From: Octopus sinensis
Lineage: Eukaryota
NCBI RefSeq assembly: GCF_006345805.1
Contig: NC_043003.1
Location: 114,824,001-114,888,000, forward strand
Direction of reading: 5' to 3'
Length of the DNA: 64,000 nt
In this document: in pieces, positions 32,723 through 45,274 of the stretch
How the letters are laid out: each line of letters begins with the position of its first letter
Numbering within the stretch: the first letter of the stretch is position 1
Program-made: the position numbers and the translations under genes
Notes under the pieces: model-generated
Database searches by the model: none
What the model was told of the DNA's origin: nothing
Seen by the model: only the letters and a program-made list of their open reading frames with translations

Positions 32723-32837
32723 CACCAATATACCTGAAGAAGTTTTGTATAAACATGTGTACAATTTAACTGGTTTGGGGATTAAAGGAAAAGTGTAAGG
32801 ATAAATTATACGATTTCCGTCTAACTGGCCAGCAGTC

Positions 32838-34025
32838 GTGTACACAACGCTAACAGATGTGTACGCAGTGCTAACAGATGTGTACGCAATGCTAAAAGAT
32901 GTGTACACAATGCTAAGAGATGTGTACGTAGTGCTAACAGATGTGTACGCAATGCTAAAAGATGTGTACACAATGCTAAGAGATGTGTACGCAGTGCTAA
33001 CAGATGTGTACCCAGTGCTAACAGATGTCTAAGCAGTGCTAACAGATGTGTACGCATTGCTAACAGATGTGTACGCAGTGCTAACAGATGTGTACGCAGC
33101 ACTAACAGATGCATACCCAGCGCTAACAGATGTGTATGCAGTTCTAAAAGATATGTACACATTGTTAATGGACGTGTGCACAGTGCGAACAGATGTGTAC
33201 GGAATGTGAATAGACGTGTACACAGTGCGAACACTTGTGTATACAATGCAAACACATGTGTAATAATGGAAGCACTCCGTCGGTTACGACGACGAGGGTT
33301 CCGATTGATCCGATCAACGGAACAGCTTGCTCGTGAAATTAACGTGTAAGTGGCTGAGCACTCCACAGACACGTGTACCCTTAACGTAGTTCTCGGGGAT
33401 ATTCAGCGTGACACAGAGAGTGACAAGGCCGGCTCCTTGAAATACAGGTACAACAGAAACAGGAAGTAAGAGTGAGAGAAAGTTGTGGTGAAAGAGTACA
33501 GCAGGGATCACCACCATCTCCTGCCGGAGCCTCGTGGAGCTTTTAGGTGTTTTCGCTCAATAAACACTCATAACGCCCGGTCTGGGAATCGAAATCGTGA
33601 TCCTACGACCGCGAGTCCGCTGCCCTAACCACTGGGCCATTGCGCCTCCACACATGTGTACATATGTGTGTTGAGTGGTATACACGTTTATACAGTGATA
33701 ATAGACGTATACACAGTGCTAACAGACATGCATAGAGTGCAAATAGATGTGTATTCTTTGCTAATAGGTATGCACATATTGCTAACGAACGTGTACAGAG
33801 TGCGAACACGGGTACACAGTGCTAACACACGGGTATATAATGATAACAGAGGTGTACACAGTGGTCGTAGATGTGTACACAGTACTAACAGACGTGTATA
33901 AGGTATAAATATACGTGGATTCAGTTGTAACAGATGTGTAAACGTTTCTAACGGACGTGTACAAAGTTCTAACAGATGTGTGCGGTGTGTAAACGTGTAC
34001 TCGTTGCTAACACTGGTGTACACAC
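32838..34025. repeat. 21 bp minisatellite (consensus GTGTACGCAGTGCTAACAGAT), interrupted by a SINE
   Basis: Visible 21 bp period, homogeneous on the left and degenerate on the right. Confidence 0.92.
33263..33651 (-). mobile_element. SINE family A
   Basis: Reverse complement of 5716-6102; TSD ACACATGTGTA at 33252 and 33650. Confidence 0.93.
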
Positions 34026-34356
34026 ACTGTAATTAAAATCAGGAGAGACGTCAACTATTTGAAATTTCAACCCTATTAAATATTCTTCCCCAATTTATAT
34101 GATCGTCTTTGAAATAAATAGAAATTTGAGCATGAAAATCTGCCGGAAGAAGCATCTATATACAAAATATTACACGTTAAAACATAAAAGTGTCTTCTTG
34201 GTAAGCATTCCTTTATCAACATAAGCGGAAACCCTTCTTTTGGAGGCCCTGTTCCATGTTCTTACCCTGCTATCGAGGACGATGTCTATAGAGGTGTAGA
34301 TGAGAAAATAGCAAGAGATTGTTCTTTGGGTAGTTTGGTGAGTTATAGGGAAGGAG

Positions 34357-36566: not shown

Positions 36567-37314
36567 TATCTTTATCCCTCTCTCATAGTTTTATTTTCTA
36601 TTTTGCAGACAGCATTTCATAGATATCATTTAAAATGCGTGTCTCATTTCATTTTGCAGAAACAATCAGATTCGTCGAATTGGTTTCATCAATAATTCCA
36701 TCAAAATGAAAGTGATAGAGACGTGGAACTAGTAATAATGATGCGGCAGATATTGATGCATGGAACCTAGTTTTCTGTGTATTCGAACAAGATCGATTAA
36801 AATCAGTTTGGTCTACAAGAAACGAGTCAGTATTGTGTACAGCACAATATCATATATGAACATATGTTTTACTCACTTCTTAAATAAATAAATAAATATA
36901 TATACATATATATATATATATAACATATGATTGTAATTAACGGCTATTGGATATAACCAGCAACCTACGCTAGAAGTAGATGTTACATACCTACAATCCA
37001 CCTTCGTTCTCTCTCACTTCTTTATATATATATATATATAAATGTCTATATATATATTATATATATATATATATTATATATATAAAATATTATTGAGACA
37101 AATATATATATGCATTATATATATAACATATATATATATAAATGTCTATACATATATATATATATACAAAAAGCAATAAAGATTCAAGTTAATTTAAATG
37201 AATTTACTTGAATGGTACCTAACTTAGATGCACCAAAAAAAAACTATACTGTTTTAACAATACAGTAATGTGGGGTGATTATAAGCGAGAAAGAAGCAAC
37301 AAGAATGGATAGGT

Positions 37315-37405
37315 TTTTAGTACAATCGTTTCATACAAGGACAGGCTTTATTAAAAGTTGCAAAAATTACACCATATAAACGTGTCCCGTACTCATCAGC
37401 TAAAA
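37315..37405 (-). ncRNA. Minimal type I hammerhead ribozyme motif (left arm)
   Basis: Mirror copy of 38050-38140. Confidence 0.8.
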
Positions 37406-38049
37406 TACATGTGACTTCTCTAGACATCCTAGTGGTTGAGGCTATACTCATGAAGTAATGTAGATAATTAAGTAACATAAACAGATTTCCAAAGTTCATT
37501 AAAGTTCTTTAAAGATGATGTACAGTCTACATCATCTTTAAAGATGAAATAGCTACAGCCTCTTGTAAATAGCAGTAATGTGATTAATGTGGCAAATACC
37601 TAATCATATAACAAGAATTGATACCTACCTCATTGTGTTCAACCATTGATAAATTTATCGCCTGTGAATATGAAATTCCTCTTCATTTCTCTGGAAATTT
37701 ACATCTACACCATTGGAAATTGTGCATCTATACAAAGGATTAATTCACCCTCTCTGTAATGCTAATAAGCAGGAATTGAGACCCACCTCGTTGTGATTAA
37801 CAATGGATAAATTTGTCGTCTGTGAGTATGTAATCCCTCCTCATATCTCTGGAAATTCATATGTGCACTATGGATTAGGTCACCTTCTCTGTGATGCTAT
37901 TAAAACATTTTTAAAATTCTGTGATAAGACTGTACATCATCTTTAAAGAACTTTAATGAACTTTGGAAATCTGTTTATGTTACTTAATTATCTACATTAC
38001 TTCATGAGTATAGCCTCAACCACTAGGATGTCTAGAGAAGTCACATGTA

Positions 38050-38140
38050 TTTTAGCTGATGAGTACGGGACACGTTTATATGGTGTAATTTTTGCAACTT
38101 TTAATAAAGCCTGTCCTTGTATGAAACGATTGTACTAAAA
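38050..38140 (+). ncRNA. Minimal type I hammerhead ribozyme motif (right arm)
   Basis: UUUUAG-CUGAUGA-GUACGGGACA...UGUCCUUGUAU-GAAAC-GAUU-GUA-CUAAAA: 6 bp stem I, ~10 bp stem II, 2 bp stem III, GUA cleavage triplet. Confidence 0.8.
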
Positions 38141-39211
38141 ACCTATCCATTCTTGTTGCTTCTTTCTCGCTTATATATATATCTTCTCTCTATATATAAA
38201 CGGCAGTTTGTCTGTGCGTGCTTCTGTGTGTCTGTTTTCTCGTACCCTCACCCTGACCACGGCTTTCAACCGATTCTGATGAAACTTGACACACACATAG
38301 CCCAATGTCATAATTCAAAACTAACGCAGCGAAAATTTTGAAAAGTTCCCCCAGTTCTGAAAAAAATTGATAAATTCGACATGGGGTCGAGAATCATAAA
38401 CATGAACCACAGACTGTCTAGGGGACGCAACTCGAGAATCTAAGCTTTTTTTATGCAACGCATTATCTATGGTAGTTTTCACAACTTGCAATCGATTTTC
38501 ACCAAACTCATGGTGAAGCTTAATGTTACCCTAAGAAACTTAATTCTGACGTTAGTTTTCCATGCAATACCTTACCATCAGAAACAATCGATAAAATCAT
38601 GCCATTTTGGGAAATCGCGTTCAAATTCAAGATGACATATTTTCGACAATATCTTTCACAAATTGGCAGGAATCTTTTTTTTTTCACAACGAGCATCATG
38701 TCTGCTCCAAGGAGCTATATAGCCCTTTTTATTCCAATAGGATACATTATTGGAAAAAATCGGTAATTTAATCATATGTGGCACACATAGCAAACAAATT
38801 TGTGTATTAAACACAAACCAGACTGTCTAGGGGACGCAACTTGACCTTTTTAGCTATCGATAATTCGATCCAACCAATTCCTACCAGGAAGAAATTACAT
38901 TCGAGACTTTACCCCCAACACCGCCACTTCTGCTAATAGCTGCTGCAGCCGCAAGTTATTCGAATACTTTTTTTGTTTAAACTTTCTTTATAACTACCAC
39001 CCCAAACGTTTTACCTTCAATTTTGACGTACCCTAACGGTCCTCGGACGCTACTTGCAAACTCTTGGTTTATTAGAAACCACTTTTGTCGTGTGCATCAA
39101 AAAACTTTTCCTTTCGTTTGTTCAGTTTGATCACTTTTGACGTTTTCGTTGTTGTCACTCATATTGCTGCCAGCTTTTTGGCCGTTTTTGTACATTTTTA
39201 TACATTTTCGG

Positions 39212-39394
39212 ATACTTACCCCACGAGCTCCTTTTTATTACACCTTTACCAAACACATTGCTATCCACCAAAATACTTACCCCACGTGTTCCTTTTTATT
39301 ACACCTTTACCAAACACATTGCTATCCACCAAAATACTTACCCCACGTGTTCCTTTTTATTACACCTTTGCCAAACACATTGCTATCCACCAAA
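39212..39394 (+). repeat. 3 x 61 bp tandem repeat immediately upstream of the RepHel ATG
   Basis: Three near-identical copies of ATACTTACCCCACG...TTGCTATCCACCAAA. Confidence 0.95.
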
Positions 39395-42300
39395 ATGCCA
39401 CCCAAGAAGAGAAGGACCCTCCTCAGCCCTCGGACGGCCAAGGCATCGGCTGCCAGGGCTAGAAGGGCACGCGAGACCCACGAGGAAACCGCCTTGCGCC
39501 TCTCGCAAACAGCTTCCCGTTATGCCGCTGCTCAGGCATCTGAAACTACTAGCGACCGTTCTACCCGACTTGCAAGGGTCGCAGCGTACAGATCTTCCCT
39601 CCGCTCGAGGTTGACGAAAGAGCAACAGTCCAGCCAAAACATGCGGGCTTCTTACTGTGCTTCCATCCGCAGAGCTCGCGAGAACCCCGAACAAAGGGCC
39701 ATTTGGAATGCGGCTAACGCCACTACCACCGCCAGGACACGATCTGTCGAAACATCACAGCAGAGGAGAACTCGCCAAGATGCTGACGCCGCAAACAAAG
39801 CCATGGCCAAAGCTGCCGAAACACCTCAACAGAGGAGAGCTCGCCAAGCTGCTAACGCCGCAAACACAGCCAGGGCTCGATCTGCCGAAACTCCACACCA
39901 ACGGACTATTCGGACATCCAGACATGCCATTAACACTGCTTCTGCTAGGGCTTCAGAGGGTGCTGAGGCGAGAGCTGAAAGGCTTTCAAGGGATGCCACT
40001 GCTACCGCTGTCGCACGTGCATCTGAATCTGCTGAGGCACGGTGCACTCGACTTGAGAGTATCAACAAACGTCGGGATATCATTCGTGGTGTACGTACCC
40101 CTGCCCCCGCTTTCTGGTTGTCACTAGCATTCAACTACGACGCCACAATTAACTTCTCCTTGCGTGACGACATCAAGATAGGGTCAATGACAATTGTGCC
40201 AGTTTTGCAAAGCCAAGAAATGGCCCGGAGAGCCACCTGGTTTGTGCTGCTCTTGTGGCAAAGTGGACCTGCCACCCCTACGGGAACCACCTCAACCACT
40301 GAAGGATCTCGCGGCGGGTTTAACCCCCGATTCGTCACAATTCCTTGAAATAATTCGAAAGTACAACTGCTCATTCCAAATGACCTCTTTCGGGGCCAAA
40401 ATTCCTCCCAGAGAAGGCTGGATGCCTACTTTCAAAGTGCAGGGACAGGTCTACCATCTTATTGGGTCACTTCTGCCAGACGAGATTCAGCAGTCTTCTT
40501 TCCTCCAAATATACTTCATTGCCGACTACAACCACCAGGTTGATGGACACCTTGGAATAATACCGGGTACAAGCTATGTTCCCCGCAAAGACATTCTTCT
40601 CCGTCTCCAAACCATGCTTCATGATATCAACAGCTACGTCTGCAGCTTCAGATATGCCTTGGACAGTGCTCCATCTTCAAACTTCACCGTTGTCATTGAT
40701 GCTGATAAACGACCCCACGGGGACGCACGAACGCCGTTTCAACGCACCTGCGTGCAACGAAATTGCCGCAGTCATACACGGAGAGCAACACAACAGCCGT
40801 GACATAATCATCTCCTCCCGTGGTAACAACCTACACAGGATCAGCGAGACTCACAGATCTTATGACGCGCTTCAGTATCCATTGCTTTTCCCTTATGGGG
40901 AAGACGGCTACCACTTCGGAATTCCTTTACGGCAGCCCTCCAATCAAACTACTGCGGCATCAAAGACTGTTTCCTGCAGGGCGTTCTACTCATACCGGTT
41001 CATGGTCAGGGAGGGTGAGTTCAACTTATTGCCCCGTTGTCGTCAGCTATTCAACCAGTTCGCCGTCGACATGGCCGCAAAAATGGAATCGGAAAGGCTG
41101 CTATACATTAAACTTAATCAGACCAAACTTCGCTCCGACTCCTACATTCATCTCCGTGACGGTTTGCAACAAGAAAATGACCCTCGCAACATCGGCAAGC
41201 CATGCATTCTACCCTCCACCTTCACGGGAGGACCGCGATATATGCGTGAAAGGACCCAAGACGCCTTGACCTACGTGCGCATTTACGGCCGGCCGGACCT
41301 CTTTATCACCTACACGTGCAATCCCAGCTGCGCGACGAAATCACTCGCGAACTCCTCCCGGGTCAATCTCACACCCATCGACACGACATCGTTGCTAGGG
41401 TTTTCCGTCTGAATTTGGGCAAAACGAAGGATTTGATAGTTAAGGGTCAGATTTTCGGGCATGTCAGGTGCCACATGTTTTCGGTCGAGTGGCAAAAGAG
41501 GGGCTTGCCACATGCTCACATCTTAATTTGGCTCACTCATAAAATCGAGACTAATGACATTGACAAATTCATTTCCGCCGAGATTCCTGACCCCGATGAG
41601 GACCCCGGACTCTACGAAATTGTCCGCACTACCATGGTACACGGGCCCTGTGGACTAAATTACGCCAACACACATGCTACAAAAACGGATTAGCCTGCTC
41701 AAAGGGATTCCCTAAACGGTTCACTTGGAGACTCAAACAGGCGGCGATGGGTATCCGCTGTACAAACGAAGGAGTCCAGCCAATGGAGGCCGCACGATTA
41801 CGGTTGGGCGACATCAAGTGGACAACAGCTACATTGTCCCCTACTGTCCTCTCCTGTCGAAGATATTCAAAGCCCACGTCAACGTTGAGTTCTGCAGCTC
41901 CATCAGGTCAATACAATATGTCTGCAAATATATCAACAAAGGCAGCGATGCTGCCATGTTCAGCATCCAGAGGACCACCAGTCGCGACGAAGTGTCCAAC
42001 TACTTGGCTGGCCGGTACCTCAGCAGCAACGAAGCGTTTTGGCGCATTTACGGCTTCCCGCTCCATCAGAGACACCCGGCGTGTGGTGCAGCTTGCTGTA
42101 CACTTGGAAAATGGACAGCGGATTTACTTCACAGAGCAAAGTGCTGTGCAGATAGCCACCAGCCCTAAAGACACAACGTTGACTGGTTTCTTCAAATTAT
42201 GCCAACGTGATGACTTCGCTCGAACGCTTTTGTACCCACAGGTCCCATCGTACTTCGTGTGGTCTAAAAACACCTGGGTTCGACGGAAATCCGGCAAAAA

Positions 42301-43842
42301 CGTCGAAAGCTTCCCAGGCGTCAAGTTTGACTCCTGCCTGGGTCGAGTTTACAACATCCCGCCAAACCAGCAAGAATGCTTCTACCTCCGTCTCCTTCTA
42401 CATGAGGTCACTGGTCCAACAGGTTTCGCCAATATACGTACCGTCAATGGGGTTCTGTGCGACACCTTCAGGGAAGCATGTATGAGACTTGGCCTTCTAG
42501 AGGATGACTCCCAGTGGGACGCCACGATGGCAGAGGGTGCTTTACTGCAAACGCATTCGGCCCTACGACATCTTTTCGCAATCCTTCTTCAAAAATGTCA
42601 GCTTAGTGATCCACTAAGTCTCTGGATGAAATACAGGGATGACATGTCGCACGACTTCTTACGTACGGCTCAGCAACACTGCCCTTCCGCCGAGATCACG
42701 TTCACCAACTTCATTTACAATTTTGCGCTCATTCAACTCGAAGACGCTGTCATCGATATGGGTGGGTCTGCTTTAACAGAGTACGGCCTTCCACCACCCA
42801 CACGTGAACACGCCAATGTTATGTCTGCTGAATTGTTACGCGAAACTTCCTACTGCATTGGAACTGCACCAGTACGTCCAAGATAATGAACCACGGCTGC
42901 TTCCAGACCAGCGCATAGCCTACAACACCATCGTAGACTCTGTCAGACAGCAACGTGGGGGGATTTTCTTCCTTGATGCACCCGGCGGCACTGGCAAAAC
43001 CTTCGTCACTAAACTAATTCTGGCAGAGGTCAGACGCAACACGGACATTGCCCTGGCTTGTAGCTTCTCTGCATTCTCAGGGACCTCTTATCGGTCGGTG
43101 AAAATAGGATGCTGTCTGATGCGGATGGCTACGTTCAATTGGACTCACTTTGCACCATTGTCGACACCCCTGCTAGCCTCCGGGACGCTGTCTTCCACGA
43201 CCTACAAAACAATTTACGCGACCTAATATGGCTGGCAGGCAGAGCTATTCTCGCACCCAAAAATACAACCGTCAACTCCATCAATATCCAGCTACTTGAA
43301 GCTATTCCTGGTGATGTCCACGTCTACAAATCTATAGATAGGACAGCAGACCCCGCCCAGCTTGCCGATTATCCTGTTGAATTCCTGAATTCACTTGAAC
43401 CGCTAGGCCTGCCACCACACATCCTGAAGTTAAAAGTCGGTGCGCCCATTATGCTCATCAGGAATTGGTTCCACCTAAACAGTGCAGCGGCACACGTTTG
43501 GTTGTGAAACATTTGGCACCACATTTAATAACGGCCACAATACTTTACCGTTGTGGGAAGGAGAGGACGTCTTCATTCCACGGATGCACCTTCAACCGTC
43601 GGGCGCTGACCTACCAATCCACTTCAGGCGTTCTCAGTTTCCTGTTAAACTCTGCTTCGCAATGTGCCATCAATAAATCCCAAGGCCAACGCTACAAGTC
43701 GCTGGTTACATTTGGGCGAACAGTGCTTCGCCCACGGTCAACTCTACGTGGGCTGTTCACGCGTTGGGAGGCGCAATGATGTTTTCATGTTTTCGCCCAA
43801 CGGACAGCTAGGAACATCGTATATACAGAAGTATTCCAGTGA
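39395..43842 (+). pseudogene. Helitron RepHel transposase (STPR-like repeats, Zn finger, HUH-Y2 Rep, PIF1-family helicase); multiple frameshifts and an internal deletion
   Basis: MPPKKRR start; CQFCKAKKWPGEPPGLCC; Rep motifs [32 protein letters not shown]; Walker A DAPGGTGKT; RAILAPKN; HGQLYVGCSRV; ends NIVYTEVFQ*. Confidence 0.93.
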
Positions 43843-44214
43843 AGACAGACATTGCAACGTCCACATGCCACCTTCGTTTCCTGGAGGGAAAGGACTACAT
43901 TGGGATTAGTCGTTGCCTACTAGGGGCTCTTACATACCCGGGCAACGCCGGCTATGCTGCTAGTATATATAGTTTTTTGGAGAACATTTCTTAGTAGTAA
44001 GACCATAGCGGATGCATTTCTAACATAAGGGTGTCCCCATAGTGGTTTCCCTCTAATATGTTTATATAATACATTTTACTGAAAATTCAGTTTTTTTATA
44101 TGCTAGACCACTGCTGTGAAATCGATGTTAATTAAATTAATATCTAATTTCTCACCGTCATTTTAAATCTAAATATATATATATATATAATATATTTATA
44201 TATATATATTAAGA

Positions 44215-44888: not shown

Positions 44889-45208
44889 ACACACACACAC
44901 ATACATACACATACACACATGTTTTCTCTGTCTCACTTCCTCCTCACCCTCTTATACTGTCTTATTCCTCCCCACTACTACGAAACTCTATAAAATGTTC
45001 AAATTCCCCACAAAGGAATTGATTTGATTTGAAAACCCCACCGGAATGGGAGAAAGCGCTAATAATCCGAATGATATGATCTGAATGATATGATAGATAT
45101 ATATATGTAAAAAATGTAATATATAAATAAATATCTATAAATATGAACCATCCGATCTGATTACCTCACTTTTTCTAATATATAATACCTGTACATCATC
45201 TCCAACCT

Positions 45209-45274
<66 letters not shown>

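Follow-up and report, generated by a model that had tools for sequence, protein, structure and literature searches.

The window, the whole 64-kb stretch of Octopus sinensis DNA analyzed here, contains an inverted repeat whose arms (37280-37528 and 37927-38175) are 249 nt each, 100% complementary and separated by 398 nt. The original prediction of identical arms is confirmed, the two being exact reverse complements, and its claim of one hammerhead per strand agrees with a descriptor search of both strands of the window, which returned exactly two matches, one in each arm. The inverted repeat is a 1-kb doubly 5'-truncated Penelope-like insertion (37167-38171) and not a separate non-coding element. 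The insertion and its immediate neighbors comprise the following features:

37151-37166, no strand: (TA)n target remnant at the tailed end, read from the sequence
37167-37528, minus strand: left arm, a 5'-truncated copy of the element 3' end with its long (tailed) end at 37167 against (TA)n, assigned by its match to the full-length unit and by an end sequence common to other long ends
37167-37279, minus strand: tail, the ~120 nt between the two fixed ends, missing from the right arm
37315-37405, minus strand: type I hammerhead, left copy (descriptor), predicted to cleave 3' of 37321
37529-37546, plus strand: junction filler, a 16-nt putative snap-back copy of the left-arm end (37529-37544) plus 2 nt
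37547-38171, plus strand: right arm, a longer 5'-truncated copy that includes the supposed spacer and ends at the short end (98.8% to the unit)
38050-38140, plus strand: type I hammerhead, right copy, with the GUA triplet at 38132-38134 (descriptor and family alignment)
38172-38181, no strand: (TA)n target remnant at the short end, read from the sequence and resuming at 43964-43971 past the Helitron
38182-43963, plus strand: independent Helitron in the same (TA)n run, with 5' TC, a 3' hairpin plus CTAG, and a frameshifted Rep/helicase (Helitron_like_N and PIF1 domains)

The left arm runs 113 nt further outward than 37280, to 37167, an extension that was initially overlooked, and loose TA ends at 37168-37169, corresponding to this long end, are present in short-read contigs. 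The supposed spacer belongs to the element: it continues the right arm upstream, in collinear order, and contains a 158-bp internal repeat. Compared with the full-length unit of the parent element, the left arm matches at 98% over 373 nt and covers the last 371 nt, while the right arm matches at 98.8% over 640 nt and spans positions 762 to 123 from the end; at least 40 right-arm-type matches exist genome-wide. The filler between the two copies includes a 7-nt microhomology to the right-arm start and resembles what we take to be snap-back, polymerase-theta-type end joining. Both outer ends of the insertion adjoin (TA)n, within which a target-site duplication is not definable.

The Helitron does start 7 bp after the right arm, as had been reported, its TC at 38182 being the seventh base. 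This contact is explained by the common (TA)n target. A link between the Helitron and the Penelope-like element was considered and rejected, since none of the 137 other element-bearing loci fetched, some of them overlapping, carries a Helitron end. The Helitron family is young, with 98-100% identity among the best 40 of 1348 first-look candidates; its copy here has STPR repeats ahead of Rep/Pif1, as well as a 61-bp sequence repeated three times in tandem (39212-39396).

Elsewhere in the window, a single-copy stretch with a polypyrimidine-AG acceptor-like site (36590-36890) is possibly a host exon; it lies 300-500 bp from the insertion. A further TA-flanked repeat lies at 45060-45215, and similar sequence adjoins element insertions in loci L027, L044 and L046. 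A 21-bp minisatellite array occupies two blocks at 32744-34030.

The parent Penelope-like element

Judged by its sequence, the parent is an autonomous Penelope-like element with Hydra-clade motifs and approximately 1,000 insertions in (TA)n microsatellites. The 896-nt query was compared with its own genome (2.72 Gb), and among the best 40 of 1696 first-look candidates, which were scored, nearly all matches cover query positions 257-896 at 98-99%, an identity to other copies that bears out the young age originally proposed. Two places carry direct copies at a period of 4614 bp, with reverse transcriptase (RT) and nuclease frames between them. The resulting 4.6-kb unit encodes a 947-aa protein combining a telomerase-like RT with a GIY-YIG-type nuclease, and one locus, L125, retains the unbroken natural 947-aa ORF. 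The proposed Penelope-type origin is thus upheld by full-length copies with RT and nuclease frames that match the locus at 98-98.8%.

For the 947-aa protein, 25 database relatives were found and 11 of them aligned; the RT motifs FDINSYY, PMGSSDS and LYRDD are conserved in these 11 homologues. At the C-terminus, the alignment conserves VIY...YIG and downstream R, H, E and N positions, which by motif reading suggest a GIY-YIG nuclease. The structural model has a mean pLDDT of 73 and two disordered Asn-rich inserts, and its seven best PDB matches in Foldseek are all telomerase RTs (TERT). Pfam returned neither an RT nor a GIY-YIG family for the protein, PDB sequence searches yielded no RT or nuclease match, and the nuclease part, searched by itself for homologues, gave no match. 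Contigs from presumed RNA runs cover parts of the element and carry no strand, end or level information.

The family displays the features of EN+ Penelope-like elements (PLEs), namely partial tandems (pLTR), an inverted 5'-truncated copy, a one-sided tail and a terminal-repeat hammerhead. Using the Hydra-clade motif definitions in section 11 of PMC8557442, and hence assigning by motifs and not by a tree, we found IRWKT (RWK), ADKTG (DKT), CKCRIKSKC (CxCx5C linker), CQLC (CxxC) and CVH (CxH). CCHH is absent, as in the Hydra clade, the core holding one unconserved Cys. The same combination of RWK, DKT, CxCx5C linker, missing CCHH and C-terminal CxxC/CxH is described for this clade by Craig et al. 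2021 (PMC8557442; Penelope-13_HM, Hydra-1_Obim), as are the C-terminal EN+ organization, the (TA)n target and a type I hammerhead. The target preference is equally evident here, where at least three TA repeats follow 68 of 73 short ends. Clade members are generally short (under 3 kb), whereas the octopus unit measures 4614 bp, with 947 aa and two Asn-rich inserts, its length being due to these inserts and a long 3' region; according to PMC8557442, length under 3 kb is a tendency of the clade and not diagnostic. The octopus hammerhead is also unlike the Hydra-1_Obim sequence and has a long stem II.

At least six sister Penelope families with their own hammerheads and 60-90% RT identity were observed (L125-L132, L178-L193), some with open frames of 900-1100 codons. 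A 680-bp palindrome (90%; L031:1307-1988) directly adjoins one full-length copy and is unrelated to the element's own sequence.

Hammerhead ribozyme and conserved RNA domain

The hammerhead consists of a 6-bp stem I, CUGAUGA, the long stem II, GAAA, a 2-bp stem III and a GUA triplet, whose A lies at 38134 on the plus strand and 37321 on the minus strand. Rfam gave no hammerhead match for the region alone and none among 150 of the 199 rows listed for the whole window. The original prediction of a genuine hammerhead with a conserved core among homologues was nevertheless substantiated: across nine sequences of approximately seven families, the core is invariant, 95.7% of cells are paired, and 8 of 13 pairs are changed on both sides, a level reached in 0-1 of 500 shuffles, with the tested structure having been set from the same nine sequences. 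Stems I and II covary, and in nearly all sequences stem III with its loop forms an 8-nt palindrome with compensatory changes.

A point missed at first is that stem III lacks the length to stabilize a monomer. Its predicted pairing probability in the monomer is ~0.01, and a dimer form is therefore expected; at the window locus, stem III and its loop form a dimer-type 8-nt wobble palindrome whose duplex contains two G-U wobbles (-5.8 vs -10.0 kcal/mol). We regard the hammerhead as a passenger of the terminal repeat, whose activity is predicted to be restricted to dimers within tandem transcripts from full-length copies. The original prediction also held that fold-back competes with self-cleavage, which is unlikely for read-through RNA because, on either strand, the antisense arm is transcribed before the ribozyme and their predicted pairing reaches 99.9%, the ribozyme stems having a predicted probability of 0 in the full transcript. 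Read-through RNA of the locus is thus predicted to fold into a 249-bp hairpin and not to cleave, and siRNA production from this hairpin is plausible.

A second RNA structure is predicted in the 203 nt from just past the ribozyme to the AUG (fold z = -7.7; for example L031:6578-6780, minus strand, and also L127, L179 and L180). In five sequences from four families, this domain is closed at the AUG by a 13-bp helix, and both sides are changed in 5 of 49 predicted pairs, giving moderate covariation support for a putative domain of approximately 200 nt, moderate because the sequences are few. Rfam left the part present in the window unmatched. Of the two ends, the short one maps immediately within the closing helix, the long one to an inner loop.

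Two fixed 3' ends and variable junctions

Exact patterns counted genome-wide yielded 955 short ends and 984 matches reading into the tail, with 0 for the control. For clustering we used the first listed matches (99 short and 100 long, covering contig C1 and some of C2, after removal of one short end that fell outside the shared range), and these 199 places formed 130 clusters. Among the matches listed, 64 clusters are opposite-strand, 4 are same-strand tandems and 62 are singles; all 64 opposite-strand clusters pair a short with a long end, with 0 short+short and 0 long+long. Forty of the 64 pairs, picked for short span, were fetched together with 20 singles, and this set comprises 50 head-to-head pairs, all short+long, and 10 loci with one arm. 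Single-arm copies of both kinds occur, so each end is usable alone, and in several the 5' end sits directly against (TA)n. A crude rule labeled two of 20 mini-palindromes short+short; inspection revealed a tail with a one-base change in one and a rearranged tail piece in the other. Similarly, all 11 pairs found in 25 loci of a sister family are short+long, with a query that picked tailed arms, so that short+short could not show, and the layout recurs at four loci of more distant families.

The two 3' ends are fixed, ~120 nt apart and both at short TA words. Of 100 short-end junctions, 79 carry a G where the template has T (CGC-G-TATA for CGC-T-TATA), and a G precedes TA at 36 of 67 long ends. 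The non-template G at short ends might have been added as a first base without a template, or reflect a telomerase-like slip of 2 nt followed by realignment. In the literature we found no published count of the one-tail rule, which subscription papers (e.g., Arkhipova 2006; Evgen'ev and Arkhipova 2005) or supplementary figures may hold. This strict pattern is a new detail and likely reflects how the element copies itself.

The junction of the inverted pair, by comparison, is different at nearly every locus, and the inverted repeat is therefore made anew at each insertion. Junctions show microhomology or templated filler, with 27 overlaps, 4 blunt joins and 19 fillers among 50 pairs. Counted by eye, the join falls on or next to the GTAC spanning the ribozyme cut site in 21 of the 50 mini-palindromes listed; in most of these 21, one arm, which can be either, passes the scissile bond by 3-5 nt. 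In another 4, an arm terminates at the cut. Joins in a control window likewise gather on a natural palindrome (9 of 32 exact), as do 15 loci in a third window, so that clustering at the cut site is not distinguishable from the control. Most arms extend past the cut site, and the template was therefore likely uncleaved, as described in PMC11167929.

A proposed insertion mechanism and its alternatives

With good confidence, we interpret the locus as one truncated Penelope-like insertion made up of two partial copies of the 3' end placed head to head within (TA)n, both broken DNA ends having likely primed reverse transcription and the two cDNAs having been joined. In the steps envisaged, all derived from finished insertions, the nuclease would cut both strands of (TA)n, and a single complex, working on uncleaved RNA, would use the short site to prime one DNA end and the tail site to prime the other. 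Both cDNAs would stop early, and host microhomology-mediated end joining with snap-back synthesis would link their ends, snap-back joining yielding exact palindromes. Priming at two ends is supported by the strict short+long pairs, the usable single ends, the longer short arms detailed below and the junction types.

The one-tail rule, the shared break points and the folded RNA domain suggest a single protein-RNA complex that uses two fixed sites to prime both DNA ends. Penelope insertion may accordingly be an ordered two-site reaction, a tentative proposal in which we place somewhat less than half of our confidence: a three-way-branched RNA domain would place two template start sites before the paired active sites of an RT-nuclease dimer, producing one short and one tailed end each time, and host end joining would close the center. 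The Poseidon_Ac element of Anolis behaves comparably in vitro (Frangieh et al. 2024, PMC11167929), where it cuts and extends both strands at an AT-rich target, starts at two internal sites that bound the tail, dispenses with the hammerhead for insertion and is modeled as a dimer. Its start sites lie inside the ORF and lack target homology, whereas the octopus ends precede the AUG, are separated by ~120 nt and fall on short TA words within a conserved, putatively folded domain. This difference in target homology counts against the two-site proposal, as does the finding in PMC11167929 that the start site shows no strand difference in vitro.

The main rival is single-cDNA fold-back, in which the inverted arm of the same element would arise by self-priming of one cDNA, a nuclease cut or a stop would set the short end, and the arms would become unequal through subsequent loss of sequence at the palindrome center. 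Self-priming has been proposed for palindromic Penelope junctions (PMC3846280), and many pair centers here fall on natural micro-palindromes. In 22 of 50 pairs, the break points of the two arms coincide to within 10 nt (permutation mean 2.3, maximum 10), a coincidence that single-cDNA fold-back also predicts and that counts against two cDNAs; this rate is raised by the selection of short pairs and was 0 of 21 in the first, long-match set, and the sister family shows it in 4 of 11 pairs. Snap-back of one of two identical cDNA ends, however, would also yield equal break points. The arms within a pair diverge by 0.4%, as opposed to 2.2% between pairs (56 of 64 pairs, those long enough), which supports our reading. 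They share 189 minor variants vs 82 differences, which fits a single cDNA; later gene conversion or assembly polishing could also have produced shared variants. Fold-back accounts poorly for the short-end-only copies joined straight to (TA)n, and in 16 of 50 pairs, as at the window locus, the short arm is longer than the tailed one, sometimes by kilobases; two cDNAs are therefore needed. We consider this rival improbable.

Far less probable, and largely refuted, is the original view of a non-coding retrozyme- or MITE-like unit that spreads whole while fold-back regulates its self-cleavage. Three other loci do match all 896 nt at 96-97% and the ribozyme is intact, but these loci differ in junction and carry the tail on the other arm, and are therefore separate insertions. 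Animal retrozymes descend from Penelope repeats, and non-LTR retrozymes share with this locus a Penelope-derived type I hammerhead and a lack of coding capacity (bioRxiv 10.64898/2026.07.22.740005). According to the same preprint, they are head-to-tail arrays with a ribozyme per unit, tandem sense ribozymes being its criterion for an active retrozyme; the octopus locus has none, is head to head and is not propagated as a unit, and its ribozyme stems have the zero predicted probability noted above. It is instead a dead truncated insertion of an autonomous family.

It is similarly very doubtful that the window locus is an assembly fold-back or was homogenized by polishing. The identity of the arms, a base they share (place 37372) that is shown by at most ~0.1% of the family depth in raw-data contigs, and the lack of a contig spanning the exact window junction among the short-read pieces listed would fit such an origin; the asymmetric ends, unique filler, non-palindromic spacer and recurrence of the layout at dozens of loci do not. 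Short-read contigs from four runs also contain five other head-to-head joints and both end types, including short-end TA junctions, making an artefact unlikely for the class as a whole. A TIR DNA transposon or MITE was rejected on its unequal ends and variable arms and junctions, and a non-LTR retrozyme on the head-to-head order with one ribozyme per strand and no head-to-tail monomers.

The inverted copy, the one-sided tail and the opposite-strand hammerheads are all already published. An inverted 5'-truncated copy with a 30-40-bp tail, often at one end, is a known PLE layout (PMC8557442), although the octopus tail is longer (~120 nt), and Penelope-13_HM of the Hydra clade has such a copy with a hammerhead on both strands (PMC8557442, File S1/S2). 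In Schistosoma, "dual min-HHRs" lie ~100-700 bp apart on opposite strands, and hammerhead cleavage is described as weak and dimer-dependent (PMC4209133); palindromic junctions and Asn-rich inserts are known from Penelope elements (PMC3846280). The octopus pairs share the inverted 5' copy, one-end tail, junction palindromes and Asn-rich inserts with canonical PLE insertions (PMC8557442, Fig 2 legend; PMC3846280; PMC4209133). They differ from these accounts, as far as their accessible text goes, in that the one-tail pattern is counted and apparently strict (64/64) and that arm break points and variants are coupled. In Octopus vulgaris, recently active Penelope families have been counted, hammerheads not being mentioned in the accessible text of PMC13282606.

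While the locus itself is ordinary, its family is a good system for studying how Penelope elements make tandem and inverted insertions, whose origin is named as an open question in PMC8557442 and PMC11167929. The one-tail rule, the coupled break points and the putative covarying 200-nt RNA domain lead to concrete predictions and an in vitro substrate. If the two-site reading is true, the octopus families, with approximately 1,000 young insertions, would prove it for the first time on a genome scale and supply a defined RNA with which to reconstitute it. These approximately 1,000 fold-back insertions may also constitute a putative source of double-stranded RNA in the octopus genome.
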